Of a stretch of 32,000 bases of DNA, positions 2 through 31,879 are shown in pieces. The DNA is from Candidatus Lokiarchaeum ossiferum (GTDB taxonomy: Archaea; Asgardarchaeota; Lokiarchaeia; Sigyniarchaeales; Promethearchaeaceae), in NCBI GenBank assembly GCA_025839675.1, contig CP104013.1, forward strand, positions 4,890,001-4,922,000. The letters run 5' to 3'. Below the pieces are notes generated by a model. That model was not told the DNA's origin and made no database searches. It saw only the letters and a list, made by a program, of their open reading frames with translations. Positions within the stretch are counted from its first letter, which is position 1. Every line of letters begins with the position of its first letter. A program made the position numbers and the translations under genes.

Positions 2-283
2 ACTGATGAGATGTGTATTGCAGCCGCTGAAGAACTTGCCAAATTTGCTGCTCACAAGGGTATTAGTGAGAATTATATCATTCCTACTATGGAAGATATG
101 CAAGTTTTTATTGATGAGGCAGTTGCTGTTGGTCAAAAAGCAATTGAACAGAATGTTGCTCGAATTCGACTTTCTGCGGATGAAGCAAGGGATATTGCCA
201 CCAAACTCATTACTGATTCCCACGATCAAACAAAATTGTTAATGAAAGAAGGATTTATTCCAGAATATCCAAATTATCTTTAA
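2..283 (+). CDS. NAD(P)-dependent malic enzyme, C-terminal fragment (5' part lies outside the window)
   Basis: The frame is open from the window edge to TAA at 281-283. The translation 'TDEMCIAAAEELAKFA...YIIPTMEDMQVFIDEAVAVGQKAIEQNVAR' fits the recalled C-terminal pattern of prokaryotic malic enzymes (..DEM..AAA.ALA....IIP...D..V...VA.AV..AA...GVAR). Confidence 0.7.
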   Translation, partial: TDEMCIAAAEELAKFAAHKGISENYIIPTMEDMQVFIDEAVAVGQKAIEQNVARIRLSADEARDIATKLITDSHDQTKLLMKEGFIPEYPNYL

Positions 284-543: not shown

Positions 544-1035
544 ATGTCTTCACATGACATCACTGATATGGAAATTGGTATTGCTTTAAGCCATTATCAT
601 CATAAACTTGGGCCCCAATTTGTTGGAATTAGTTTCAACTTTACTTCATTTGATTCCATCAGTCAGTATAATATTCTTCAAGATTCAATATCCTCACGAT
701 CGAATGACCTTGCCTTATTTGTGAACAATAAGGAAGGAACCCCCTATACTATCCGAATTAAGAAAATTAAAATATTGGATCCCTTAGCTCGGGGCGGGGT
801 ACAAAGATATGCTGTAGTACTATTAATTCCAAGTGATTTACAAAAATTTGATTTTAATATCGAGGAAATTGCAGAAGATTTAATAGATAAATTGTCCCAA
901 GGTGCCAACATTCATCAATCTTTAAATGCATGGCATACATTATTGAATGATCAATTTGGGGCAATCAAACCTGATGAAGAGCTTAAAATTGTACGACGTA
1001 TTAAACCCAAAACTCAAACTTTAGACTTATTTTAA
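544..1035 (+). CDS. folliculin/Lst7-like longin-domain protein (hypothetical; function inferred from motifs only)
   Basis: 163-aa ORF. 'IGIALSHYHHKLGPQFV' and 'ILDPLARGGVQRYAVVLLIPSD...IAEDLIDKLSQGA' parallel the recalled human FLCN longin segments 'IVALCHFCELHGPRTLF' and '[22 protein letters not shown]...VRGIIDELQGKA'. The size fits a single longin domain. Confidence 0.55.
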   Translation: MSSHDITDMEIGIALSHYHHKLGPQFVGISFNFTSFDSISQYNILQDSISSRSNDLALFVNNKEGTPYTIRIKKIKILDPLARGGVQRYAVVLLIPSDLQKFDFNIEEIAEDLIDKLSQGANIHQSLNAWHTLLNDQFGAIKPDEELKIVRRIKPKTQTLDLF

Positions 1036-1053
1036 TTTTTTTTTATTATTTTT
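1036..1053 (+). terminator. T-rich tract (T9 A TT A T5), candidate terminator
   Basis: The tract starts immediately after TAA at 1033-1035 of the preceding CDS. Confidence 0.45.
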
Positions 1054-4121: not shown

Positions 4122-4901
4122 ATGCAAATTTTTCAAGTTATTCCTAATGGTGAAGTGCACGAAATTCTTGATGCGGATAAACCGATTGTTGATCTCTTAG
4201 ATTCAAACGAATCTTACATAATGTGTGATGATGATGCTCGGATTGTTTATTTATGGAAAGGTCGGGAATCTAAAGTTCGATCAAAGTTCATTGGTGCACG
4301 AAAGTTGCAAGATGTAAGAAGTCAAGTTGGCCTAAATTATCGAAGTACTTCAATGGATGAAGACGATGTGCTTGCTGGTGAATTTCCAGAATTTAGCGAA
4401 GCTATTATGAATCCTCGTTCCGATGGATTCGCACGTGAAATTCGTGAAGATGGAGATGATGTTCAATATAAAATTGAAAATGGAAATCCGCCTCCAAAAC
4501 CTAAATCCTACTCGAATTTAAATGCCAATAATTTAAATGAAAATCTCCAACAAACAGGACCAATTTATACTGGCGATGAAGGTGGCTTTTCCTCATATTC
4601 TTTGGCTCAACAATCCGGTGCTAAACCATATTCTAAGGTGGAATTAGAAAAAATAATTGATATTCTAGACGAAGAAGAAATTCCTGCTGGTTTTGAACGA
4701 GAAATGGTTATAATTGGTGATAAAAGTTATTCAGTTACCGAAAAAGTTCAATCATTTTTAGGAAAAAAAACTGTTGAACATCAATTGGAACCTATCAGCA
4801 CTTTACCCGAAGGTGTATTTTTTGCTGAAGGGTACGTTCCACGTGTTTTAGTTCAAGATCAAACGGTTGTTGCAATTGAATTCTTGCGTAAAATAGAATA
4901 A
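4122..4901 (+). CDS. gelsolin/villin-type domain protein (one N-terminal gelsolin repeat, N/P-rich linker, unassigned C-terminal domain)
   Basis: Residues 1-95 read 'MQIFQVIPNGEVHEI...SNESYIMCDDDARIVYLWKGRESKVRSKFIGARKLQDVRSQ...GEFPEFSEAI'. This follows the gelsolin repeat pattern (lqiwrve..., sgDsYil, iy.W.G..ss..Ek..a...a..l, E...F...F). It is followed by a low-complexity segment 'PPPKPKSYSNLNANNLNENLQ' and an ~85-aa C-terminal region I could not assign. Confidence 0.7.
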   Translation: MQIFQVIPNGEVHEILDADKPIVDLLDSNESYIMCDDDARIVYLWKGRESKVRSKFIGARKLQDVRSQVGLNYRSTSMDEDDVLAGEFPEFSEAIMNPRSDGFAREIREDGDDVQYKIENGNPPPKPKSYSNLNANNLNENLQQTGPIYTGDEGGFSSYSLAQQSGAKPYSKVELEKIIDILDEEEIPAGFEREMVIIGDKSYSVTEKVQSFLGKKTVEHQLEPISTLPEGVFFAEGYVPRVLVQDQTVVAIEFLRKIE

Positions 4902-4911
4902 TTTTTTTTTT
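4902..4911 (+). terminator. oligo-T tract (T10), candidate terminator
   Basis: T10 directly follows the TAA (4899-4901) of the gelsolin-domain CDS. Confidence 0.5.
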
Positions 4912-4939
4912 CCAAAAAATGATATTTTTTTAACTTCCA

Positions 4940-5353
4940 ATGTCTTATTTTACATCAAGGAACAAATTAATTATGTCTCTAAATCAAACTGATGCCCAAC
5001 AATTATCTGCTTATTTAGCAAACATCACTCAAAATACTGAGTTGGATGCACTTGCTTTGGTAACTCGAGAAGGTATGCGGTTAGCTTATTCAGCTGTTCC
5101 TGGGTATGAAGTAAGTCCAGATAATTTATCCGCAATGGGGGCAGTATTGCTTCAATCCGGTAATGATTCTGTCACAAAAATTGGGTATAACAAATTGATT
5201 GAAGTTGTTCTTCGTGGAAAAAAGAGTTTTTTAGTTGTCTCAGCAGCAGGACGTTTCTTTTTGATTGGAGCATCTCGCTCAATTCGTGATTTAGGGAAGA
5301 CAGTCACGGTTTTCCGTTATTATTCTAAAAAGATAGGGGAAACTTATCAATAA
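4940..5353 (+). CDS. Roadblock/LC7 (MglB-like) domain protein
   Basis: 'LDALALVTREGMRLAYSAVPGYEVSPDNLSAMGAVLLQSGNDSVTKIGYNKLIEVVLRGKKSFLVVSAAGRFFLIGASRSIRDLGKT' matches the Robl_LC7 pattern (ga.lv..dG..la......d.e.laAm.a.l......... l....i..v.i.......lvv..ag....l..........lG.v). A second possible start is ATG 4973. Confidence 0.75.
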   Translation: MSYFTSRNKLIMSLNQTDAQQLSAYLANITQNTELDALALVTREGMRLAYSAVPGYEVSPDNLSAMGAVLLQSGNDSVTKIGYNKLIEVVLRGKKSFLVVSAAGRFFLIGASRSIRDLGKTVTVFRYYSKKIGETYQ

Positions 5354-5354
5354 A

Positions 5355-5360
5355 TTTTTT
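5355..5360 (+). terminator. short oligo-T tract (T6), weak terminator candidate
   Basis: T6 begins 2 nt after the TAA (5351-5353) of the Roadblock CDS. Confidence 0.3.
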
Positions 5361-5449
5361 ACTTCACTAAACAATTTTTCTTTAATCTTTAATCGTACCA
5401 ATTTATTGAGTTTACATTTTTATTTGGTAATAACCAATATTCAAGTGAC

Positions 5450-7741
5450 ATGGAACTCAAACTTTTTGTAGAGATTGTGAGTAATATTAGTCAAAAATGC
5501 ATTCTAAGTGTGAAAAATGCTGCGAATCTAGGGCTACCTCAAGGGGGGTCTGTCATTTTAGTAGATCCCGCATTGAATACAAATATTGCATGCACAATGG
5601 AACCAGATTCCGAAGTTCTCGATTTCAGTGTTCGTGTAGCTAAGGATGTATTAACTCAAATTAATTTTACTGGGTTAGAAATAATCATTTTAAGTAATGA
5701 TGATCAGAATGGGGCGTCAATTCCTGCTCCAAATAATAAATCCCAGCCTCCGATTAACATTCCTCCTAGCCCTATCCTACCTCCTACACCGAGCACTTCG
5801 AATTTTCCAACTATTGATTTAAATTTAAATTCATCAACTGCACCAGCCCCAAATGTACCTTCGATGCAAACTCCTCAAGTTCCTCCGATGCAAGCACCTC
5901 AAGTTCCTCCGATGCAAACACCTCAAGTTCCTCCGATGCAAACACCTCAAGTTCCTCCGATGCAAACACCTCAAGTTCCTCCGATGCAAACACCTCAAGT
6001 TCCTCCGATGCAAACACCTCAAGTTCCTCCGATGCAAACACCTCAAGTTCCTCCGATGCAAACACCTCCGATGCCCGTATCTCAAATGCCTCCAATGCAA
6101 GCCCCACCTGTGCCCAATTCTCAAATGTCTGCACCTCAATCTTCCGTTCCTCAAAGCCTACCTCCATTAATTGAGGTGGATCCTTATCCTAATCGAATTC
6201 CTATTTCACAACTTGCTAATCAAACACCAAATTCCGCAATTTTAATTCCGAAAATTTCTAAAAAATCTCTTTCTGGAAAAATTGTTATTAATGCTAAAAC
6301 TGCTACTCAGCTAAATTTGTATCCTAATGCGATTGCAGGATGGGAAGATCACTTAACTCGTTCTACTGGATCTGCACGTGTTGAAATCATGGAATTGGGT
6401 GATGGGAATGTTGGTATGGATGAAAATACGATATTTGATACCAATGTGAAAGCTCCCCAATTAGTTGTATATTCTTTAGAGCCTCCAATTGTACCTGTTG
6501 AATCTTTAAGTCTTGAAGTTGAGTCTAAACCCGATTTAGGTGGATTTATTGAAATAAATCATCGTAATGCTCAAACCTTGCAAGTTACTGAAGGAGACAT
6601 TTTATCTTTTGAAGATGAATTGACAGGTGCCTTTGGTGCAGGAAAAGTTCGGTTCAATCCTAATGTTCAAGAATCTAATGCCATAATTGACCAAGAATTA
6701 GTAGAAGCAAGTGGAGTTGGGAGCTTTGAGGTAGAATTGAAAAAAAATATTCGGCAAATTATCCCTCTTCAATCCATTGAACTGGGTGTTTCGCCAATCA
6801 GTGGAGAAAATGTCTGGGAAATAATTTCCATGGCACGGGAAAATATAGATGTTGTTAAAAAATGGTTGAGCAATTATATCATTTATAAAGGAATTAAATT
6901 AAGGTGGAAGTCTGCAAATATCGCCATTGAAGTGCTTAACACGGTACCGGACTTGAGTGGTGATGTTCTTGCCTCTATTTCGCCTTCAACTGCCATTGAA
7001 TTGAAGCCTGTTAGTTTAATTACTTTTAATGCTATTCTTGTGATTGATATAAGCCGTTCTATGATGGCTCGGGATGTTCGGGTCACCAATATCGGTCCTG
7101 CTTTGGAAGGTATAAAATCTGCTATGCATGATCCTGAAATCCAAGACTTTTTGGCAAAATTTAAACCTGGAACCAATGTTCCGCGAAGATTATCTGCAGC
7201 TTTTTCAGCAATTTTGTTCTTATCTGAAAAAGTTGGAAGAGGTTTTGGAGAGCGTGTAAGTGTAATAAGGTTCGCTGATGAAGCTCAAATTTTACCAATG
7301 TCTGCTGGAAAACTGTGGATGGATTCTTCATCTGGTCAAAAGGGTGAACTCGAAAATTGTGCCCGTTTGATCGTTCGAGAAATTGGTAATGCTTATGGAC
7401 AAGCTACAAATATGGGATTAGCGATGCAAAAAGCACAAGAATTATTAAATCAATTCTCAATCGATCAGCCTGATCAACCTACAATGATTGTTCTACTGAC
7501 TGATGGAAATCCAACTGATGGAACTGCTTTTTTGGATGCTATTGACAAGATTTCTGAAAATCAAAATGTCGTTCTCTATATAATTGGACTTGGAAATTTA
7601 GATGATGGAATGATGAAGAAAGCAGCAGTGAAATGTGCTGGTGAATACTTTAAACCCGAAGATTCGGGAGAATTACTTGTTTGGTATAGTAAAAGAGCTC
7701 GAGATCTCACATTAAAACTTCGAAGAGAAGAGAAAAAATAA
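5450..7741 (+). CDS. von Willebrand factor A (vWA) domain protein with three N-terminal beta-barrel-like modules and a proline-rich repeat tract
   Basis: The C-terminal part has a MIDAS-type motif 'VIDISRSM' (DxSxS, codons 7046-7060), then 'NMGLAM' and 'MIVLLTDGNPTDG'. Residues ~130-235 are P/Q/M-rich ('PMQTPQVP' x8). Three modules share 'I.(V/I)N...A..L.L/V..G(D/S)'-type segments: 'ILSVKNAANLGLPQGGSVILV', 'IVINAKTATQLNLYPNAIAGW' and 'IEINHRNAQTLQVTEGDILSF'. I saw no signal peptide or TM helix. Confidence 0.75.
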   Translation: MELKLFVEIVSNISQKCILSVKNAANLGLPQGGSVILVDPALNTNIACTMEPDSEVLDFSVRVAKDVLTQINFTGLEIIILSNDDQNGASIPAPNNKSQPPINIPPSPILPPTPSTSNFPTIDLNLNSSTAPAPNVPSMQTPQVPPMQAPQVPPMQTPQVPPMQTPQVPPMQTPQVPPMQTPQVPPMQTPQVPPMQTPQVPPMQTPPMPVSQMPPMQAPPVPNSQMSAPQSSVPQSLPPLIEVDPYPNRIPISQLANQTPNSAILIPKISKKSLSGKIVINAKTATQLNLYPNAIAGWEDHLTRSTGSARVEIMELGDGNVGMDENTIFDTNVKAPQLVVYSLEPPIVPVESLSLEVESKPDLGGFIEINHRNAQTLQVTEGDILSFEDELTGAFGAGKVRFNPNVQESNAIIDQELVEASGVGSFEVELKKNIRQIIPLQSIELGVSPISGENVWEIISMARENIDVVKKWLSNYIIYKGIKLRWKSANIAIEVLNTVPDLSGDVLASISPSTAIELKPVSLITFNAILVIDISRSMMARDVRVTNIGPALEGIKSAMHDPEIQDFLAKFKPGTNVPRRLSAAFSAILFLSEKVGRGFGERVSVIRFADEAQILPMSAGKLWMDSSSGQKGELENCARLIVREIGNAYGQATNMGLAMQKAQELLNQFSIDQPDQPTMIVLLTDGNPTDGTAFLDAIDKISENQNVVLYIIGLGNLDDGMMKKAAVKCAGEYFKPEDSGELLVWYSKRARDLTLKLRREEKK
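5863..6069 (+). repeat. 24-bp coding tandem repeat, 8 full copies plus a truncated ninth
   Basis: The unit is GATGCAAACACCTCAAGTTCCTCC. Copies 3-8 (5911-6054) are identical, and copies 1 and 2 each differ by 1 nt. A 15-nt partial copy follows, then a degenerate P/Q/M-rich tail to about 6150. The repeat is in frame with the vWA CDS. Confidence 0.95.
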
Positions 7742-8280: not shown

Positions 8281-8937
8281 TTATATCCATTTTCCCTTCA
8301 ATTCCTCAGAATTAGAAGAATTTTTTTTTTTAACCTTTTTCCCCGTTAATTCTCGTGTTTCTATTATATTTTTCTTCGTAGCATCATCGATGTGCATACT
8401 ATGTTTCTTTATCCAAGAACCTGGCTTATATAAATGACTTGTTATAATCTTCTGTAAATCTTTCCACTTATTTGTAGATGATTGTAAATAGTTTTTTAAT
8501 TGTTCATGACGATCTTGTAGATATTGAAAGTATTTTGCTTCGGATTGAAAAGATTTTTCCACTTCTTCAGCGAAATTATAGAATGTTGAGACATTGCCGC
8601 TAAATTCCTTATCGAAGTATTTATGATATTTTTCATCGAACTTAATTTGTAGATTTTTTAGCTGTTTCATGGTGATATCGTGAGATTTTTCACCCAAAAT
8701 TACTATTACCATAATATATTTTTCAGAAATACTAAATGTAAAACGTAAATCTTCGAGTTGAAGAAAACTCACTTGTCGATGTGCAATTTCTGAGGAAAAT
8801 GTCATAATAGCATATAAATAGCCCGTAATAATTCCCGAATCTACATCGGTGGGTAATTCTTGAAATGTCTGCTCAAAAATACACATTCCGCTTTCTTTAT
8901 GGATGATCCAGAATTTTACAACATCCTTCATTAGCAT
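8281..8937 (-). CDS. longin-like (sybindin/sedlin/TRAPP-small-subunit-type) domain protein with helical C-terminal extension
   Basis: The N-terminal ~125 aa read 'VKFWIIHKESGMCIFEQTF...DSGIITGYLYAIMTFSSEI...LRFTFSISEKYIMVIVILGEKSHD...LKNLQIKFDEKY'. This follows the longin pattern seen in TRAPPC1/Bet5-like proteins (l.if...G.cl......d....l.G.l.si..fs..l....f....y.l......lk.v...d.). The assignment is by pattern only. Confidence 0.45.
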   Translation of the reverse strand: MLMKDVVKFWIIHKESGMCIFEQTFQELPTDVDSGIITGYLYAIMTFSSEIAHRQVSFLQLEDLRFTFSISEKYIMVIVILGEKSHDITMKQLKNLQIKFDEKYHKYFDKEFSGNVSTFYNFAEEVEKSFQSEAKYFQYLQDRHEQLKNYLQSSTNKWKDLQKIITSHLYKPGSWIKKHSMHIDDATKKNIIETRELTGKKVKKKNSSNSEELKGKWI

Positions 8938-9021
8938 ATTTAATGTTTTTTTCCCAATAAATTAAGCTAAATGTGAAAGTATGAGTAAATATTTTATTTA
9001 TCAAGAACTAATGGATGATCA
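8938..9021. promoter_or_regulatory. divergent promoter region
   Basis: This 84-bp AT-rich gap separates divergently oriented start codons (8937 minus, 9022 plus). The TATA-like word 'AAATATTTTATTTA' (8988-9000) lies ~25-30 nt upstream of ATG 9022. 'TTAATTTATT' on the minus strand (8953-8964) lies upstream of the 8937 start. Confidence 0.3.
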
Positions 9022-9528
9022 ATGAGTTATATCTCTGAACGGAATAATATTGGAAAAATAGCGTTGCATCTTGATCAAATAAATATTCCTTACCGATTTC
9101 AAGATATTGGTGATCAGGAAGATAAAATTTTTCCTGCATTAATTTGTACATTCCGTGTTGAAAATCTCGAATTTGATGTTATTATATATAATTTAAATAA
9201 GTGGATTCATGTCAAAACCCTTGTAATGGATACTGCAGATCTTTCTTCTGACATTCTGCTGAAAGTTTATGAATTGTGTTTAGAATTAAACTATGATCTC
9301 CCCGAAGTTACTTTTTCTGCTTTTCAAAAAAATATCTTTATTGAGGTTGATTGTCTGGTCGATGTGGATTTTGATGATTTTAAAGCGGAATTTCTATCTA
9401 TTGGAGATGGAATTGAAGCTTTTATTAGTACAATTAAACAAAGACAAAACATTTCCATCCAAAGCACGAAAGGATTTGTACCTGATAAAAATTCAAAAAT
9501 GCGAAGAAAAAAAATAAAAACCTTCTGA
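9022..9528 (+). CDS. YbjN-like / type III secretion chaperone-like fold protein (hypothetical)
   Basis: The pattern 'FPALICTFRVENLEFDVIIYNLNKWIHVKTLVM...SSDILLKVYELCLELNYDLPEVTFSAFQKNIFIEVDCLVDVDFDDFKAEFLSIGDGIEAF' resembles the YbjN family (..w..v...l.....ll..lLelN.......f.......l........d...l...l). The assignment is tentative. Confidence 0.4.
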   Translation: MSYISERNNIGKIALHLDQINIPYRFQDIGDQEDKIFPALICTFRVENLEFDVIIYNLNKWIHVKTLVMDTADLSSDILLKVYELCLELNYDLPEVTFSAFQKNIFIEVDCLVDVDFDDFKAEFLSIGDGIEAFISTIKQRQNISIQSTKGFVPDKNSKMRRKKIKTF

Positions 9529-9533
9529 ATAAT

Positions 9534-11471
9534 ATGACAATTGAAACCTCCCCTCTTGTATCACTTAATTTACTAAATTTTCCTCAACAATTGTTGATTG
9601 GAAAAAAAAATTATTTGTTGAACTTTGAAATCACTAATCTCGTGGCAACTAAAGAAGATTGTGTCATAAATTTTACGGGAGCTCATTGTAAAATATTAAA
9701 TGTTTCATCTAATTCAATTAAATTTTCATTGAATCCGTCTGAAAAAAAATCTTTTAATTTGGAGATAACACCCACGCATAATGGCGCAATAAATCTCAAT
9801 TTTGAAGTTATTCATCAAAAAAAGGAAGAATATCAGGAAATATTTTGGGAAGTAAAAAAAAAAATCGAAAAAACCTTAATACAAACAATTATTAACGAAA
9901 AACCTATTGAAAATTTTGACATTGATGCATTCATCTCGAAAATCCCAACTTCAATAGAATTAAACGGCATCGAGACTGTTACTTCAGAGCAAGCTCATCA
10001 TATTTTAAATGAAATCCAATCTCCACCCAAAGCACCTCCTCCACGAAAAATAATTCGATCTATTGAAAAAGTAATACCTTCTAATTCTAAAGAAGAAGAT
10101 CAACATCCTTCTGAAATTGAAACGAAAATAATTCATGAATCAGTTATTGAATATGTACAAGATCCTGCTCCTCCTTCCTTAACAATTGAGGAAAAAGATT
10201 CCCTATATTCGGATCTTGTCATCAAGGTTGCACAACATGATATTGAATGCGCACTTGAAACAATAAAACTAATTTCCAAAGAAGATATAAGGAAATCTCT
10301 CTATAAACAAATAGTTCCTTTAGGATATTCCCAAAATTATTCTTTTATATTGAAAGAAGTTTTAACAATTCCTTTTACTGACTTGAAAAATCATTTTTTA
10401 TCGGAAATGGCTTATTTTCGAGTAAAAACTGATCCGAATGAATCCGCAATGGTCCTTCTTAATATTAGTGATGATAATATGCGTGATAGCGTTCTTTCTC
10501 ATATCATTTTTTATATTTCTACAACCCAACCTAGTCTTGCTTCAAAACTAGTGTATCAAATTTCAACTCCAGAATTGCAACATAAGATTCTATTTGCCTT
10601 AATTAAAATCTGGAGTGAGAAGAACAGACAAATTGCTATATCTTCCCTCAAGAGTTTGATCGAGACAATTTTAACTAAAACTAACACAGAGCTTATCCGA
10701 TCCTGTATGATTTTACTTGCACATCTGACTAATCCTCCTGCAGTAGTTGAACTTATTGAAAATATGAAAGTTGAGGAAGACAAAATTTGGTTAAAAAATT
10801 TACTGAAAAAGGATTTAAAAGAAAAATCAAAACGGACTACCGTTAGAATGATTCCACAAATTGTTCAAACCTTATTTTATAGTTTTCCTTGTGCTACAAC
10901 TAATATTACTTCTTCTTTAGATTATCTTTCAAAAATTGGAGGTAATTTGAGCATAAATCTTTTAGATAATGTTCAATCTCCTCAAGTGATTTTCCTTTGT
11001 CCATTCAAACATAACTTTTCTCTCTATTCAAGTATCCAACAAGTCTATTTTTCTGTTGAAAGTGAGATAAAGAAATCTTTTGGCTTTATTCTATTTCCTG
11101 AAGATGATCTTTTGGCAGAATCGAATTGGGTTCATTTGAAAGATCTATTGGGAAAATTTATCATTCAAAATCCAAATCCAACTCATCTGATTTTATTGGA
11201 TTTTATTCCCTATATGTCAAAACCTTCCGTTTTTTATTCTTCAAACGAAATTAATCAAAATTCATCAATTTATACAAAATTATATTCAATTCAACAATAT
11301 GGAATCAATCTCTTTCATAATACACACTTTTTCCATGAAGGAGAGATTCTTAACAAAATTCAATCTCAAATCTCAAATTCTAATCTGAAATTTATTAATA
11401 TGGTCTTAACATATAATTTTCTTAGAGACCTCCCATTTCTGAATCTGCTTTTCAAAACAATCGTTCAATAA
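9534..11471 (+). CDS. hypothetical 645-aa multidomain protein (beta-sandwich-like N-terminus, P-rich linker, alpha-helical repeat middle, alpha/beta C-terminus)
   Basis: A long uninterrupted ORF starts 5 nt after the preceding stop. Residues 1-95 show CARDB/Ig-like strand periodicity ('NFEITNLVATKEDCVINFTG...SEKKSFNLEITPTHNGAINLNFEV'), with no signal peptide. A linker carries 'PPKAPPPRK' and 'DPAPPSL'. Residues ~230-440 are helix-rich. I recognise no family. Confidence 0.6.
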   Translation: MTIETSPLVSLNLLNFPQQLLIGKKNYLLNFEITNLVATKEDCVINFTGAHCKILNVSSNSIKFSLNPSEKKSFNLEITPTHNGAINLNFEVIHQKKEEYQEIFWEVKKKIEKTLIQTIINEKPIENFDIDAFISKIPTSIELNGIETVTSEQAHHILNEIQSPPKAPPPRKIIRSIEKVIPSNSKEEDQHPSEIETKIIHESVIEYVQDPAPPSLTIEEKDSLYSDLVIKVAQHDIECALETIKLISKEDIRKSLYKQIVPLGYSQNYSFILKEVLTIPFTDLKNHFLSEMAYFRVKTDPNESAMVLLNISDDNMRDSVLSHIIFYISTTQPSLASKLVYQISTPELQHKILFALIKIWSEKNRQIAISSLKSLIETILTKTNTELIRSCMILLAHLTNPPAVVELIENMKVEEDKIWLKNLLKKDLKEKSKRTTVRMIPQIVQTLFYSFPCATTNITSSLDYLSKIGGNLSINLLDNVQSPQVIFLCPFKHNFSLYSSIQQVYFSVESEIKKSFGFILFPEDDLLAESNWVHLKDLLGKFIIQNPNPTHLILLDFIPYMSKPSVFYSSNEINQNSSIYTKLYSIQQYGINLFHNTHFFHEGEILNKIQSQISNSNLKFINMVLTYNFLRDLPFLNLLFKTIVQ

Positions 11472-25286: not shown

Positions 25287-28010
25287 GTGGTTGAAATGAT
25301 TAAAAATGTTAAAATTGTGAGGATTATACTTCTTGTCTTCATAGGGTCTATTATCGCAACTATTCCTACTGCACTAAGTCCAGAATCAAACATCGTTAAT
25401 TCTGACATTGTAGAATATAAGGAAATAGATTATGGGACGGAATTAAGGTCATTGAATATGGATAATATTCTTTTAAGCAATCCTTCCTTAATGCCATCAT
25501 CCTCAAGCGAAGATGAAATGATACCGTTATCAAGTGCTGCCAGTGTGGGGGATATTTTAAACTGGTATACAATTGATTCAACAAGTTCAAGCCAATTAGT
25601 TACTGCATCTTTTAAGTTACGTGCCATTGGGAGTCACACTGAAGTTTGGGTTCAACAAGATCTATCTTACCCCGATTCTCGACCAACTCCTGTAATTACA
25701 GATACCCAGTTAAATTATTTATTATCTGAATTCGAAAATACAATTTATCCAATCGATACAGAATATTTTGGTGATCCTGATTTTCATGATGGGACTGGGT
25801 CCTACTACAATGCTGACGGCAGAGATGTTGTGTTAGTCTCAAATATACGTGATGATATGTATTATGATGATACTTATCCTTATTATATCGCTGGGTTCTA
25901 TTGGAGTTATTTTGAAAGTACTTATGATCGAAACATAATTTCGATTGATTGTCGTAATTTTGATGATAAAGTAGGGACTGTAGCACATGAATATCAACAT
26001 TTAATTCATGATGATTATAATACCAATGATGACACCTTTATGAATGAAGGTTGTTCAATGTATGCAGAATTGTTATGTGGATATGAAGTACCTGCAGGGT
26101 ATACAACCGCATTCTTCACTACTCCTGATAATTCCTTAACCGATTGGAAAGATCAAGGTGATTTAAATTCAATTGCTGATTATGGATGCGTTTTCCTATG
26201 GACAACTTACTTAGCAGATCATTTTGGAGGGGCTGATTTAATTAGCTATTTTGTTCAAAATGGGGTTGCTGGGGTGAATGGTATCAATCAAGCTTTATCG
26301 CATTTTGGATATTCCGAAACTTTTGATGAAATTTTCCGAGATTGGACCATTGCAAATTACTTGTTAACTGATGCAATTGGTGGTGGAAAATATAACTACG
26401 ATAGTATTACTATAGAAGAAGAATTACGAGTTTATAATGTTGCCTCTCAAACAATCACTGATAAAACTGGCTCAAGTTTTGGGGAAACTATAACTTATAA
26501 CGATGATGGGACCGGTATCTATGAAATTTCTTCATATGGTTCTGATTATATTGAATTAACTGGAGTGGCCTCAAATCTTAATCAATATTTCACTTTTGAT
26601 GGGGATAATATTGCTGGATCCGATGGATTCTATTTAACATTAGTTAGTCTTGAATCTGGAGTTCCTACTGGAATTGAATTTGTTTCTCTCGATTCAAGTT
26701 ATGAAACCACCTTATCTCCTTTTGCTTTGTCTGCCATGACTGATGGAGATGTTGCTATGATTGTCTCCACAACTTCTGGATTGTCCGATTATAAATTTAG
26801 CATTTATCAAGAAGTCGATAACCCTCCAACCGTTGATATTACCAGTCCCGCTAATGGCGCCACTGTGGGTGACATAGTTTTAATTTCAGCTGAAGCTACC
26901 GATGGGGAAGGCATTGATTATGTCCGTTATCAAATTGATGGGGGATCATGGATTGTAGATAACACTGCTCCATATCAATGGTCTTGGGATACCACTGGAT
27001 TAGTCGATGGACAATCTTATACAATAAATGTGCAAGCTTTTGATACTGATGGAAACACTGCTGAAGATAGCATTACTGTTGTAGTTGATAATCGTGAAAT
27101 TTACCACACCGAAGTTGAATATACTGGTGCCGTTGCTGGATATGAAGTTGACTATTATCCAATTCAAGCTCAACCTGGAGCCATGACAGTTAGCGTTTCT
27201 TGGAGTGCTAGCAATGATATTGATTGCTATATCTGTACTGCCGAAGATTATTCAAACTATCTTGCTCGAGGTTATACTACTAATAATCCAGAATCTTGTT
27301 CTTATACCATTACAAGTGCTGGAACCTATTATGTTGCAGTTCGAATGTATACCAGTAGTGCTTCATCTACCGCCTATACATTAACGGTAGGATATTATAC
27401 TGGAAGTATTGAAGATCAAACTCCTTCTGTTTCTATTACTGGACCTACAGATGGTGAAACAGTCACTGGTGATGTCATTATTACAGCTGATGCTACCGAT
27501 GATATTGGAATTGATTATGTCCAATACCAAATCAATGGCGGTTCTTGGATTACCGACACTTCGGCACCTTTCCAATGGGCTTGGGACACAACCGGACTTG
27601 TCGACGGTCAAACATATACTATAGTAGTCCGAGCTTACGATACTGCTGGTCAATACGCGGAAGATTCTATTTCAGTTATTGTTGATAATGAAATCAGTGT
27701 AATTCATGTCACCGAAGAATTTTCAGGTAGTGTTAGCGCTCGCCAAGTACTCTATTTTGCAATTACTGCTGAACCTGGATTGGTAGAAGTATCGGCTTCT
27801 TGGGGAAATAGTTATGATATTGATGTATATATTTGTCAAAGTCAGAGTTATACTAGTTACTTAGCACGCGGATATACAACCAACAACCCTGAAACATGCA
27901 GTTATGACTTACAATCTGCTGGAACATACTACATCGCTGTAAGAATGTATTCTTCATCTGCTCCAAGCACTACATTTGCACTAACAGTCTCATATTATAA
28001 ACTTGCATAA
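25287..28010 (+). CDS. secreted zinc metalloprotease (gluzincin, HExxH...E; M30/M6-like) with two C-terminal Ig-like + pre-peptidase-C-terminal (PPC)-like modules
   Basis: The N-terminal signal/anchor is 'IVRIILLVFIGSIIATIPTALS'. The active site reads 'VAHEYQHLIHDDYNTNDDTFMNEGCSMYAE'. Two ~198-aa repeats each carry an Ig-like part ('GIDYV.YQI.GGSW......P.QW.WDTTGLVDGQ.YTI.V.A.DT.G') and a PPC-like part ('DID.YIC......Y.ARGYTTNNPE.CSY...SAGTYY.AVRMY'). The start is GTG 25287 or ATG 25296. Confidence 0.75.
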   Translation: MVEMIKNVKIVRIILLVFIGSIIATIPTALSPESNIVNSDIVEYKEIDYGTELRSLNMDNILLSNPSLMPSSSSEDEMIPLSSAASVGDILNWYTIDSTSSSQLVTASFKLRAIGSHTEVWVQQDLSYPDSRPTPVITDTQLNYLLSEFENTIYPIDTEYFGDPDFHDGTGSYYNADGRDVVLVSNIRDDMYYDDTYPYYIAGFYWSYFESTYDRNIISIDCRNFDDKVGTVAHEYQHLIHDDYNTNDDTFMNEGCSMYAELLCGYEVPAGYTTAFFTTPDNSLTDWKDQGDLNSIADYGCVFLWTTYLADHFGGADLISYFVQNGVAGVNGINQALSHFGYSETFDEIFRDWTIANYLLTDAIGGGKYNYDSITIEEELRVYNVASQTITDKTGSSFGETITYNDDGTGIYEISSYGSDYIELTGVASNLNQYFTFDGDNIAGSDGFYLTLVSLESGVPTGIEFVSLDSSYETTLSPFALSAMTDGDVAMIVSTTSGLSDYKFSIYQEVDNPPTVDITSPANGATVGDIVLISAEATDGEGIDYVRYQIDGGSWIVDNTAPYQWSWDTTGLVDGQSYTINVQAFDTDGNTAEDSITVVVDNREIYHTEVEYTGAVAGYEVDYYPIQAQPGAMTVSVSWSASNDIDCYICTAEDYSNYLARGYTTNNPESCSYTITSAGTYYVAVRMYTSSASSTAYTLTVGYYTGSIEDQTPSVSITGPTDGETVTGDVIITADATDDIGIDYVQYQINGGSWITDTSAPFQWAWDTTGLVDGQTYTIVVRAYDTAGQYAEDSISVIVDNEISVIHVTEEFSGSVSARQVLYFAITAEPGLVEVSASWGNSYDIDVYICQSQSYTSYLARGYTTNNPETCSYDLQSAGTYYIAVRMYSSSAPSTTFALTVSYYKLA
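26817..28007 (+). repeat. intragenic tandem duplication of a ~594-bp (198-aa) two-domain module
   Basis: Copy 1 is ~26817-27410 ('DNPPTVDITSPANGATV...TLTVGYYTGSI'). Copy 2 is ~27411-28007 ('EDQTPSVSITGPTDGETV...ALTVSYYKLA'). They are collinear, at roughly 60% amino-acid identity by eye. Confidence 0.85.
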
Positions 28011-29512: not shown

Positions 29513-31879
29513 TTACATTGAAGCTCTATTTTTTAATATTTTTTCCACTTTGTGATCCAGTTGATTTAAAAAGGACAAATAAGCAGTTGATTTAAACAAG
29601 CGATTCTGGATGGTTTTTGGTTTGTCAATCAAGCTTTGATCTTGTTTACACAACGTAGCAATAAATTTCAAGATGAATTCTTCTAGTTCCTTTGCAAAAC
29701 TGCTAAGCTCCAGATGGTTCAAGTCTTTAGAACAATATTCTGGGATGTTAACGTCCAATGGATGCTTATGAATGTTTCGAAGACTTCCGGATGCTCCAGT
29801 ACTGCCTACCTTCTTAACTCGTCTTGTAATATATGGACTATTTAAAATTCCCAGCAGAAAATATGCTTCTGGAAGTGTTTCAGGTATAAAAAAGTAGAGG
29901 GATGTGTCAATAATCGCAGGATCTGTTATTATGGCGGCTTTTACGATACTTCCAATTCCATTGTATACTACTTTTGGCTGCATAAATTGGCGAGGGTCAC
30001 TCAGAGCTTTCCCATAGTTAAGTCGTTGAAGTAAATTTGAGATTTGAGCTCCATCTTTCTTGTGTTCTTGATACAATTTGGTAAGCAATTGGTAGTGTTT
30101 TTTAGCAAAGGGTGTTTTTGGCGAATTTACTGTGTAAGAATGATCTGATTCTTTGTTCAAAGGCAAAAAGGCGTGATACTTTTGAATATACTGAAATGGG
30201 ATTAATCCCGTACTTTTTGCTACTGAAAAACAGTATTTACTCTCAATTTGAGCGCGTTCAAAGGCTTTGAATTGCCAAGTGCTATACTTTTTGGATTGAA
30301 TCCATCGGGATGGTTGAATTGTTATTATTTTTTGAACTCGGTCTTTTTCATTCGAAATAGGTTCTATAAACAGTAAATTTCTGGGAACTAACGACGCTCC
30401 CTGACGAAATTTCGACTTATATGAAGATTCTTGTTTTCCATTTTTTGAAATTCCATTTACAATGGCTGAAATCATTTTTTTTTGAGTGGTTGGATCAAAA
30501 GGAGCTAATCTTCCAACTAAGAACGAACAATCTGTTTTTATTGGGTTATAGGGGCTCTTTTCTATCTTTGAATCTTTGTTTGTGATACTCATTGGAAAAT
30601 ACCATTGGGTTGAAGCTAATTTTACAGAAAAGGGGTTTTCCACACAGTCAAAGATGTTCCATTTAATCTTCAATCGATCTTCTAAAGACATTTTTCCTTT
30701 CTCTGCTTTCATACAATGATTATGGATCCGAAAAACATCTTTGGTAAATGCCCAAAATTCAATATTTTTTAAACCTGTGAATTGACGAAACAGAGCATGC
30801 TGTCCCGCATTTGCTAAACTGGCCGGGGTCACAAAAAACATTTTTCCTCCCTCCTCCAAATTCTGTCGTTGAGAATGGGTGATAAAAATGGTTGTCAACT
30901 CTGTTGAAGTTGCTAATTTTCCCCCTAATAAGATTCCATAATCCATCCCTAATTTTTTGATTCTCGTTTTTTCTTCTTTTGACGAGATTCGATTTAATAC
31001 AACCCAAGGAGGATTTCCTATAAGTAAATCCATTTTTACTTGTGAAACATGGTTTGTTGGATTTGAAGGAAAAAGAAAATTGTCGTGAATTATTTTGGGA
31101 TCAATTAACTGATTCATTTGTTCTTCTTGGATTAAAATCAGATTTGCTCTTGCCATAAAACAAGCTAGGGGATTAATATCAATGCCATGTAGATTATTGT
31201 AAGCTTCTCTCTTTTCTACCATAGTTTTTTTTGAAGTGAATATTTTTTTAGCAATCTCACAAAGAAACGTGCCGGATCCGCATGAGGGATCTAAAACACG
31301 GTCACCAAACTCGTAAATGTCTCCCACCATCAAATGAGCTAACTCTGAATGGGTATAAAATTCCCCTTGGGGATGGCGAGTGGTGTTTGCAATCAATTCT
31401 TGATATATTTGCGTAAAAAGATCTTCTTTTTTAAATGAAACTGTCTTGAATGACTCTAATTTTTCATATTCTGCAAAGAAAATATTGATTATTTCTTGAT
31501 TTTCAATAATCCACCTCATATATGACGGGATTTTTAATAATTTTTCCATACTGTGAAATTTATTCTGAACCGTGCTTATTTGATCCGCATTTTTTTTATT
31601 TGGATTCCTTTCTTGAAAGATATAGATTATAAAAAACACTGATGTTATCAATTGAACGTGTTTTACAAACAATTCTTGATTAACCTCATCTTGCAGATAT
31701 AAATTTCGGAAGGATTCTTGCCATATTTTAAAATTGGCTTGGATCTTGTTGATTCCTCCCATTTGTAATTTCGAAGTTACTATTTTTTTCAGTTCTTTGC
31801 CGATTGGAGAAGAAGTTCCCCATTTTTCCATCAACCACGATCCACTGATCATAAAATTAAGTTTTTGCTCCTTCTCCAT
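29513..31879 (-). CDS. N6-adenine DNA methyltransferase (gamma class, Eco57I/TaqI-like catalytic core with large N- and C-terminal domains)
   Basis: The motif order is X-I-IV: 'GEFYTHSELAHLMV', 'VLDPSCGSGTFL', 'LHGIDINPLACFMARANL' and 'DLLIGNPPW'. The ~170-aa N-terminal domain is helical and the ~380-aa C-terminal region is target-recognition-like. I saw no PD-(D/E)xK nuclease motif. Confidence 0.8.
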   Translation of the reverse strand: MEKEQKLNFMISGSWLMEKWGTSSPIGKELKKIVTSKLQMGGINKIQANFKIWQESFRNLYLQDEVNQELFVKHVQLITSVFFIIYIFQERNPNKKNADQISTVQNKFHSMEKLLKIPSYMRWIIENQEIINIFFAEYEKLESFKTVSFKKEDLFTQIYQELIANTTRHPQGEFYTHSELAHLMVGDIYEFGDRVLDPSCGSGTFLCEIAKKIFTSKKTMVEKREAYNNLHGIDINPLACFMARANLILIQEEQMNQLIDPKIIHDNFLFPSNPTNHVSQVKMDLLIGNPPWVVLNRISSKEEKTRIKKLGMDYGILLGGKLATSTELTTIFITHSQRQNLEEGGKMFFVTPASLANAGQHALFRQFTGLKNIEFWAFTKDVFRIHNHCMKAEKGKMSLEDRLKIKWNIFDCVENPFSVKLASTQWYFPMSITNKDSKIEKSPYNPIKTDCSFLVGRLAPFDPTTQKKMISAIVNGISKNGKQESSYKSKFRQGASLVPRNLLFIEPISNEKDRVQKIITIQPSRWIQSKKYSTWQFKAFERAQIESKYCFSVAKSTGLIPFQYIQKYHAFLPLNKESDHSYTVNSPKTPFAKKHYQLLTKLYQEHKKDGAQISNLLQRLNYGKALSDPRQFMQPKVVYNGIGSIVKAAIITDPAIIDTSLYFFIPETLPEAYFLLGILNSPYITRRVKKVGSTGASGSLRNIHKHPLDVNIPEYCSKDLNHLELSSFAKELEEFILKFIATLCKQDQSLIDKPKTIQNRLFKSTAYLSFLNQLDHKVEKILKNRASM

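Follow-up and report, generated by a model that had tools for sequence, protein, structure and literature searches.

The origin of the catalytic longin domain is an open question of eukaryogenesis. In eukaryotes, longins of the GTPase-activating protein (GAP) type occur in folliculin (FLCN)/Lst7, SMCR8/C9orf72 and NPRL2/Npr2; the longin GAPs (FLCN-FNIP, GATOR1 and C9orf72-SMCR8) control lysosomal Rag and Arf GTPases, and their mutations are linked to Birt-Hogg-Dube syndrome, epilepsy and amyotrophic lateral sclerosis/frontotemporal dementia. A stretch of 32,000 nucleotides from Candidatus Lokiarchaeum ossiferum (assembly GCA_025839675.1, contig CP104013.1, positions 4,890,001 to 4,922,000, forward strand; hereafter the window) brings this question to an archaeal locus. 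A preliminary description of this DNA had read a 163-aa open reading frame (ORF) near its start as a stand-alone folliculin/Lst7-type longin that keeps the arginine finger. Does this archaeon, then, encode a longin of the eukaryotic GAP class, and does the protein act as a GAP? Here we report that the ORF family is very probably a homologue of the FLCN/NPRL2 class of longins. We also favour, with little more than even confidence, the reading suggested by the sequence and the structural model that the ORF product is a stand-alone longin of the GAP-type class acting as an arginine-finger GAP.

A conserved gene of Lokiarchaeia

The gene in question and the tract that follows it are:

544..1035, + strand: longin gene, 163 aa, complete, with ATG at 544 and TAA at 1033-1035 (from the ORF list)
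1036..1053, + strand: T-rich tract (a T9 run, then TTTT), directly 3' of the stop codon, read from the sequence

A second in-frame ATG lies at 568 (M9), immediately 5' of the conserved core, which starts at E10. The ORF and the three peptides quoted from it in the preliminary description are present in the translation as given (IGIALSHYHHKLGPQFV, residues 11-27; IKILDPLARGGVQRYAVVLLIPSD, residues 75-98; IAEDLIDKLSQGA, residues 109-121), and Arg83 is indeed encoded at 790-792, where the codon reads CGG. An identical protein is found in the NCBI assembly GCA_041410205.1, at ~5.24 Mb of the closed 6.27-Mb chromosome CP163304.1. In the comparison of orthologues, the proportion of nonsynonymous differences (pN) was 0.17-0.30 versus a synonymous proportion (pS) saturated at 0.75-0.81, and the longin gene is therefore under strong purifying selection. 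The ORF at 544-1035 is a real, conserved gene of Lokiarchaeia. An antisense 55-aa ORF at 744-911 was rejected, since it sits within this strongly constrained gene.

GC content across the AT-rich window ranges from 0.29 to 0.38, and a TATA-like box, TTTTAAAG, lies around 480, inside the 260-bp spacer 5' of the longin gene. Oligo-T tracts can serve as archaeal transcription terminators, and the T-rich tract at 1036..1053 is a possible terminator of this kind, which would make the longin gene monocistronic. We rejected an operon with the upstream malic enzyme gene or the downstream Ldh_2 gene, given spacers of 260 and ~220 bp and the T9 tract after the stop.

In a set of 5.8 billion proteins, 55 homologues were found, with 37-94% identity to the ORF; all those with a stated organism come from Promethearchaeota/Lokiarchaeota, Ca. 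Harpocratesius or Promethearchaeum syntrophicum MK-D1 (DSAG12_01735). None of the 55 carries a precomputed Pfam domain or a functional name, the names being, where given, 'hypothetical' or 'uncharacterized'; no NCBIfam family matches the longin protein, and a literature search for DSAG12_01735 found no mention of it. Exhaustive profile searching with HMMER across 1.84 billion cluster representatives retrieved only 19 proteins at E<=1e-3, none obviously eukaryotic, and a scan of 185,579 species genomes yielded 12 loci, assigned to Promethearchaeota in every record that names a taxon.

Profile comparisons with folliculin

Among the 24,736 models of Pfam, the sole match to the ORF is Folliculin (PF11704; E 0.022, 15.0 bits, residues 53-121 to HMM 34-101). 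When we scanned 56 family members, Folliculin was matched in 47 (best E 3.1e-4) and the next family in 9; all Folliculin matches are sub-threshold, and the 47 members are mutually related, so they do not amount to 47 independent observations. The NPR2, Longin, Sybindin, Robl and DENN models, like those of every other longin-type family, gave no match at E<=1 in any of the 56.

For comparison at the level of families, we collected FLCN and NPRL2 homologues into profiles, with a human NPRL2 sequence checked against PDB chains and a human FLCN sequence that agrees with PDB 6ulg_L over 579 residues with one mismatch, at 476. The alignment of the 56-member family matched the N-terminal FLCN alignment in hhalign with E 1.1e-3, and with E 1.1-1.6e-4 when human FLCN provided the match states. 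The score was 33.0 (P 1.1e-4). Column-shuffled FLCN profiles, 400 in number, scored 13.0 +/- 2.8 with a maximum of 27.6, and none of them (0/400) reached the observed value, which stands ~7 standard deviations higher; the reversed FLCN profile scored 14.6. The Viterbi alignment pairs ORF 58-119 with FLCN 142-206. The N-terminal halves alone align at the hairpin (ORF 13-27 with FLCN 5-19, P 0.018), and greedy re-alignment (hhalign -mact 0.05) is colinear across ORF 11-138. As a yardstick, FLCN and NPRL2, both accepted members of the class, match each other with a score of 19.9 (P 0.022). The archaeal family matches NPRL2 with a score of 21.7 (P 0.012), in the hairpin and the start of helix α1 only, where the shared pattern is S-x-[FY]-H-x-x-LGP. 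BLASTP of the ORF against FLCN 1-233 recovered an Arg segment (E=0.088) and a GP segment (E=0.57), neither of them significant.

These results bear on the parallel with FLCN that the preliminary description had drawn by eye. The FLCN strings it quoted are correct when read against 6ulg_L, with R164 within DSLARG, and the parallel is real, but its significance emerged from family-level statistics (hhalign), single-sequence BLASTP being insufficient. The third pair of segments, IAEDLIDKLSQGA and VRGIIDELQGKA, fared less well: both fall in the same helix, α2, but hhalign shifts the register by two residues and the match is weak. The profile comparison that it had proposed came out in its favour, Folliculin being the sole recurrent Pfam family and the profile-profile match to FLCN significant. 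Its interpretation is supported within the reach of sequence and predicted structure, and none of the three outcomes that it had named as refuting appeared: FLCN is the better profile match, the predicted fold is a longin with FLCN and NPRL2/Npr2 nearest in Foldseek, and the conservation of G23-P24 and R83 among aligned homologues is nearly complete (see below).

The predicted fold

We modelled the protein with AlphaFold2 using the family alignment.

574..954, + strand: longin domain, residues 11-137 (AlphaFold2 models, Foldseek)
955..1032, + strand: C-terminal tail, residues 138-163, predicted disordered (predicted local distance difference test, pLDDT, <50 for 142-153 and 160-163) and clade-variable in the alignment

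The full-length model has a pLDDT of 81.8 and is poor only in the N-terminal 5 and C-terminal ~25 residues; a model of the core, residues 9-139, reaches a pLDDT of 91.6 and a predicted template modelling score (pTM) of 0.85. Its elements follow in the order β1 12-19, β2 23-30, α1 38-50, β3 55-61, β4 67-78, β5 86-96, α2 106-118 and α3 123-137, that is, a predicted β-β-α-β-β-β-α-α topology without an N-terminal helix and with two C-terminal helices, the order known for longins and their five-stranded antiparallel sheet. Longin and Roadblock arrangements are contrasted by helix placement (PMC10933270), and in the model the helices are placed as in a longin, so that the ORF is predicted to adopt the longin rather than the Roadblock fold. 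A Roadblock/LC7 (MglB-like) identity, for which an α-β-β-α-β-β-β topology would be expected, was rejected, there being no N-terminal helix in the model and no Robl_LC7 match.

In Foldseek searches of the PDB, the top 7 matches of the full model and the top 7 of the core were all FLCN chains (8dhb_J, 6nzd_H, 6ulg_L) or NPRL2/Npr2 chains (9o5d_D, 9o5a_H, 8adl_S, 9h4q_T, 7t3b_B, 9v0j_A), their identities assigned by sequence comparison and chain lengths. FLCN and NPRL2/Npr2 are each the catalytic subunit of a longin GAP. These matches have E values of 5.5e-5 to 3e-3 and, for the core, query-normalized template modelling (TM) scores (TMq) <=0.54. The bridge to FLCN is seen by profile-profile comparison, sub-threshold Pfam matches and structure only. 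Four independent lines of evidence for the folliculin link agree, each by itself modest, and as far as the sequences can tell, the affiliation among FLCN, NPRL2 and SMCR8 is no finer than 'closest to FLCN'.

The GP hairpin and the arginine loop

Two segments of the longin domain carry the features expected of GAP-type longins, and a third is the most conserved of the family:

571..624, + strand: β1-β2 hairpin, residues 10-27 (EIGIALSHYHHKLGPQFV), with the GP motif G23-P24 at bases 610-615 (conservation, hhalign)
778..798, + strand: β4-β5 loop DPLARGG, residues 79-85, with the candidate arginine finger R83 at 790-792 (hhalign, conservation, model)
655..693, + strand: helix α1, residues 38-50, with the highest conservation in the family (Q41, Y42, L45, D47, S48 and I49 invariant)

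In the hhalign alignments, the hairpin corresponds to FLCN 3-19, with H17-Y18 on H9-F10 and G23-P24 on G15-P16, and to NPRL2 10-24 (LGP), with G23-P24 on G20-P21. The loop D79-P-L-A-R83-G84 is paired with FLCN D160-S-L-A-R164-G165, and QDSISSRS of α1 is paired with FLCN QACVRSLS in the greedy alignment, at low per-column confidence. The model places G23-P24 at the β1-β2 turn and R83 within the β4-β5 loop DPLARGG. In FLCN, R164 is the catalytic arginine finger, and specificity depends on the loop 10-16, which includes F10 and makes contact with RagC (PMC9473554). The GP motif, found at the end of the β1-β2 loop or the start of β2, is specific to GAP longins and missing from longins that are not GAPs, among them adaptins, TRAPP and the DENND proteins; GAP longins and a class of Asgard longins have been defined in print by this motif together with an arginine finger in the neighbouring loop (PMC12290439). 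Judged by alignment, the ORF has both the GP motif and an Arg equivalent to FLCN R164. Among the aligned homologues, G23 is present in 54/54, P24 in 52/54 and R83 in 52/54, and both exceptions lose P24 and R83 together.

The joint loss can be followed in a paralogue. GCA_030592305.1 and two related assemblies carry a tandem longin pair downstream of the malic-enzyme gene:

L010 10001-11465 (GCA_030592305.1, JAUVJG010000016.1), also L012 4100-5564: tandem longin duplication

The pair consists of P0019 (197 aa) followed by the canonical P0013 (160 aa), which are 57% identical to each other. The P0019 copy is intact in several assemblies and has a ratio of nonsynonymous to synonymous substitution rates (dN/dS) of 0.26 versus its neighbour, which indicates purifying selection; P0020 is a paralogue of the same type. 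There are 48 positions conserved at >=90% in the longin family, and P0019 is changed at 10 of them, with 9/10 in the hairpin (10-27) or the loop (79-90) and 1/28 elsewhere (Fisher p=7.5e-4). The changes are H17Y, Y18N, K21E and P24S (GP to GS) in the hairpin, and A82S, R83P, G84K, Y89F and A90T (ARGG to SPKG) in the β4-β5 loop and the start of β5. The loss is therefore coupled, with the fold retained, and it implies that hairpin and Arg loop make up a single functional site, which can disappear as a whole. By analogy, this single-site behaviour matches that of R164 and the loop 10-16 of FLCN. From its sequence, P0019 is a candidate for a non-catalytic partner subunit. More distant relatives, P0067-P0069 (~150 aa, E 1e-6 to 1e-5; P0067 at L008 1328-1780, all on short contigs), keep the KLGP hairpin and have a β4-β5 loop without Arg.

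Genomic context and candidate GTPases

The longin gene follows a gene for a metabolic enzyme:

11..283, + strand: 3' end of the NAD(P)-malic enzyme gene (Pfam malic/Malic_M), with the 260-bp spacer before the longin gene

This adjacency is kept in several Lokiarchaeia genera, with Pfam malic/Malic_M upstream at every locus, and the further neighbour past the malic enzyme is a DAO/Pyr_redox_2/DUF1667 cluster. On the other side, a gene for an Ldh_2-family dehydrogenase lies ~220 bp 3' of the longin gene. Pfam searches of the ORFs of >=90 aa found no second longin in the window.

In P. syntrophicum MK-D1, the next gene after the longin, 323 bp downstream on the same strand, encodes a 496-aa Gtr1_RagA-type GTPase (L001 8851-10341; CP042905.2, complement strand, ~1,283,390-1,284,880), with a Pfam E of 2e-11, G1 GPQEVGKST, switch II DLAGQ and a ~300-residue C-terminal extension. 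A Rag-like GTPase is encoded within 0.3-10 kb of the longin gene in 8 distinct genomes or metagenome-assembled genomes (MAGs), in two architectures. The second of these, of ~430 aa, consists of a ~120-residue N-terminal extension, the GTPase and a C-terminal region; it adjoins a Ras/Arf-like GTPase and recurs 5-8 kb from the longin in Harpocratesius and related MAGs. The 4.3 Mb of MK-D1 contain genes for 74 small GTPases, and its GTPases lie generally outside operons with longins (Tran et al., PMC10933270). The neighbouring GTPase of MK-D1 is a lead to a substrate, not evidence of one.

The order Ldh_2, TBP, 140-aa gene, 600-aa gene, GTPase seen in related genomes is rearranged in the genome of the window. 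At related loci (L005, L002, L010), Ldh_2 is followed by TBP and a ~140-aa gene, and further on by the Rag-like GTPase. In the window's genome, TBP and a 141-aa gene, which we take to be the same as the ~140-aa gene, lie on the strand opposite to the longin gene and 9 kb upstream of it (L009 1-982). An inversion has apparently split the longin from the Rag-like GTPase block here. Given this rearrangement and the new place of TBP, a GTPase may be encoded outside the window.

Proposed function and alternatives

If the ORF product is the arginine-finger GAP that we favour, its sequence and predicted structure suggest how it could act. The protein would dimerise through the longin sheet and helix α1, the most conserved surface, either with itself or with a non-catalytic paralogue. 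The dimer would sit against a Rag/Arf-like small GTPase from the same archaeon, at the face where that GTPase binds nucleotide. The β1-β2 hairpin (H17-Y18 ... G23-P24) would then touch the GTPase, and Arg83 of the β4-β5 loop would enter the nucleotide pocket as an arginine finger. GTP hydrolysis would speed up and the switch would go off, as with FLCN-FNIP, GATOR1 and C9orf72-SMCR8. In this scheme, the dimer, its binding to a GTPase, its catalysis as a GAP and the target itself are all inferred. In a narrower version, the protein would be a minimal GAP of the ancestral folliculin/Lst7 type, a ~130-residue longin working as a homodimer or with an Arg-less paralogue, whose R83 switches off the adjoining Rag-like GTPase-Roadblock protein of MK-D1; we hold this version to be quite unlikely.

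A number of observations weigh against the assignment of a folliculin-like GAP. The hhalign probability is just 20-56%, neither the ORF (15.0 bits) nor any other member reaches the PF11704 gathering threshold of 23.3 bits, phmmer and profile hmmsearch of all PDB sequences gave no FLCN, NPRL2 or meaningful match, and the search of the 1.84 billion representatives with an HMM does not reach FLCN. The Foldseek TM-scores are ~0.5, and the non-GAP longins DENND10 and DENND1A are nearly equal (0.50-0.52), with E only ~10-50x worse. The family is narrow, with >=47% identity among most members, and since as many as 48 positions are conserved at >=90%, the conservation of R83 and GP alone says little. 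By analogy, the eukaryotic longin GAPs are heterodimers with larger partners, and the counterpart of such a partner is here a candidate only. As for the target, no small GTPase was found in the window, either by Pfam on the ORFs of >=90 aa or by tblastn with four Lokiarchaeal GTPases, and the neighbouring GTPases of other genomes are split between the two architectures. With 74 small GTPases in MK-D1, adjacency to any one of them by chance has a probability of a few percent, and the recurrent proximity of GTPases may be inherited synteny.

The main alternative is a longin of the FLCN lineage that is not a GAP, serving as a non-catalytic platform, a scaffold or a subunit of the guanine nucleotide exchange factor (GEF) type, with Arg and GP kept for folding or binding. 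Most longin and Roadblock proteins are platforms or GEFs, and GAP activity is exceptional (PMC10933270; PMC12290439). The structural scores barely separate GAP longins from DENN longins, P0067-P0069 keep KLGP without Arg, which means that GP alone does not imply catalysis, and the window offers no GTPase. We nevertheless regard a non-GAP role as somewhat unlikely: in an unsupervised profile alignment the Arg falls exactly on the FLCN R164 column, the degenerate paralogue loses Arg and the GP proline jointly while keeping the rest of the fold, and the GP motif is absent from non-GAP longins (PMC12290439). It is unlikely, too, that the ORF encodes the catalytic half of an obligate heterodimer, inactive alone, with the partner encoded elsewhere and with an Arf-related (ArfR) or Rab-like target, as for SMCR8-C9orf72. 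PF11704 covers SMCR8 besides FLCN ('UDENN FLCN/SMCR8-type' names stand on PF11704-bearing FLCN homologues), which suits this possibility, as do the tandem catalytic and degenerate pairs of some Lokiarchaeia and the Arf/Ras-type GTPase genes that also lie near the longin gene at several loci. All eukaryotic longin GAPs, moreover, are heterodimeric (PMC12290439). Most genomes, however, have a single copy at the longin locus, and the partner is only hypothetical, while target specificity is not readable from sequence.

Finally, the likeness to folliculin could be due to chance or convergence, the protein being an unrelated small α/β domain, such as a PAS/LOV-like domain or a generic Roadblock-superfamily sensor, whose function has nothing to do with GTPases and is maybe tied to the conserved malic-enzyme/glycerol-3-phosphate dehydrogenase neighbourhood. 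LOV/PAS chains do occur in the Foldseek list, at E 2e-3 to 2e-2, the single-sequence BLASTP matches and the Pfam scores fall short of significance or threshold, and the best-conserved neighbour, malic enzyme, is metabolic. We consider this origin of the likeness very improbable, because the LOV/PAS chains have low TM (0.34-0.41) with a root-mean-square deviation of 10-18 Å, and the single helix between β2 and β3 and the two C-terminal helices are those of a longin, not of PAS. The profile-profile score, moreover, stands 7 standard deviations above the shuffles with two independent segments colinear, and Folliculin is the only recurrent match from the whole of Pfam. PAS/LOV identity was accordingly rejected on its lower TM and wrong topology.

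Comparison with known longin GAPs

FLCN/Lst7 (PF11704; PDB 8DHB, 6NZD, 6ULG) is the closest of the known systems. It shares with the ORF the longin fold, the GP at the β1-β2 turn preceded by His and an aromatic residue, and the D-x-L-A-R-G loop between β4 and β5 with Arg on the R164 column; FLCN is the best match of the ORF both in profile-profile comparison and in Foldseek, with 14-19% identity in structural alignments. Lst7 is a longin-only protein without a DENN module, and the ORF likewise has none, so that the Lst7-like, longin-only architecture noted in the preliminary description is borne out at 163 aa. Unlike metazoan FLCN, the ORF has no counterpart of the ~80-residue Cys-rich insert between β2 and α1 (FLCN 25-105, with invariant C82 and C85). 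It also differs from FLCN in falling below the Pfam threshold, in having no DENN domain and in the lack of an identified FNIP/Lst4 partner. Because it has neither the DENN module nor the Cys-rich insert, the ORF is not an FLCN orthologue and resembles Lst7-like minimal forms.

NPRL2/Npr2 of GATOR1/SEACIT (PF06218; PDB 6CES, 7T3B, 8ADL) shares the longin fold and a nearly identical S-x-[FY]-H-x-x-L-G-P hairpin, but the profile match is confined to the hairpin and the start of α1, there is no Pfam NPR2 match, and the ORF lacks the NPRL2-specific C-terminal domain. The arginine finger of NPRL2 is presumably R78, in the equivalent β4-β5 region, which did not align confidently to the ORF. In SMCR8-C9orf72, the finger is SMCR8 R147 and both subunits have GP motifs, with C9orf72 lacking the finger (PMC12290439). 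Such a pairing of a catalytic with an Arg-less, GP-bearing protein recalls the canonical family and P0067-P0069, a likeness by description only; the eukaryotic pair differs in size and make-up, both proteins being of the large longin-DENN type and associated with WDR41. MglB, a small dimeric protein of the Roadblock superfamily that serves bacteria and archaea as the GAP of a small GTPase, MglA (PMC10933270), parallels the role proposed for the ORF product. Its topology is that of Roadblock, N-terminal helix included, and it contributes no arginine finger; the ORF has no Robl_LC7 match and is predicted to have the longin topology.

The preliminary description had left open whether this family was already catalogued in Asgard surveys, and at the level of the class it was. 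Liu et al. reported that Heimdallarchaeia have proteins of FLCN architecture and that families of NPRL2-like longins abound in Thor, Loki and other groups (bioRxiv 10.1101/2020.10.19.343400), and a 2025 paper in Traffic described Asgard longins of the 'FLCN/SMCR8-type' that carry the GP motif and the arginine finger (PMC12290439). The central idea, Asgard GAP-type longins, is therefore already published at class level, and the ORF belongs to a known class. Unlike those reports (PMC12290439; bioRxiv 10.1101/2020.10.19.343400), whose emphasis is on Heimdallarchaeia and on Thor/Loki NPRL2-like proteins, the present family is HMMER-detectable only in Promethearchaeota. What appears to be new is a Lokiarchaeia-restricted family with no functional name, precomputed Pfam domain or NCBIfam entry, the 15 published Asgard longins (PMC12290439) having been compared by description only. 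Its relative closeness to FLCN, the gene pair of MK-D1 and the degenerate tandem paralogue also appear to be new.

After 2025, the finding will not surprise specialists, and its value is that of a clean, culturable test system. The family adds a cultured host, P. syntrophicum MK-D1 (DSAG12_01735), as well as a closed Lokiarchaeial genome; a candidate substrate, the Rag-like GTPase whose gene adjoins the longin in MK-D1; and a natural loss-of-motif paralogue, which argues that hairpin and Arg loop form one functional site. Thanks to this host, candidate substrate and paralogue, an assay for R83-dependent GAP activity is simple to design. If such activity is real, arginine-finger longin GAPs would be older than eukaryotes; and if the minimal folliculin-type GAP described above were real, there would have been a working archaeal FLCN-Rag module before TOR and lysosomes, which could be reconstituted from a cultured organism.

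Other genes in the window

Further along the window, three co-directional genes at 4122-7741 (+) may form a Roadblock-centred module, with no GTPase gene alongside:

4122-4901, + strand: 259-aa ORF, no Pfam or NCBIfam match
4940-5353, + strand: Roadblock/LC7 protein (Robl_LC7, Pfam E 8.3e-6), 3.9 kb downstream of the longin and apparently in a separate cluster
5450-7741, + strand: 763-aa VWA-domain protein

Within the VWA gene, at 5858-6127, a 24-nt unit that encodes PPMQTPQV is repeated 8.8 times (97% matches), and a looser repeat of 39 nt comes after it. These repeats form a Pro/Gln-rich linker, and the 24-nt repeat gives rise to ORFs that are long but spurious, both in further frames and on the complementary strand. 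At 8281-11471, ORFs of 218 aa (-), 168 aa (+) and 645 aa (+) match no Pfam or NCBIfam family, and they have no homology to the similarly placed genes (140 aa and 600 aa) of related genomes. Two long genes lie towards the 3' end of the window:

25287-28010, + strand: 907-aa protein, Big_7 and PPC domains, probably secreted or at the cell surface
29513-31879, - strand: 788-aa N6_Mtase/Eco57I/TaqI_C protein, by appearance a type IIG-like restriction-modification fusion enzyme

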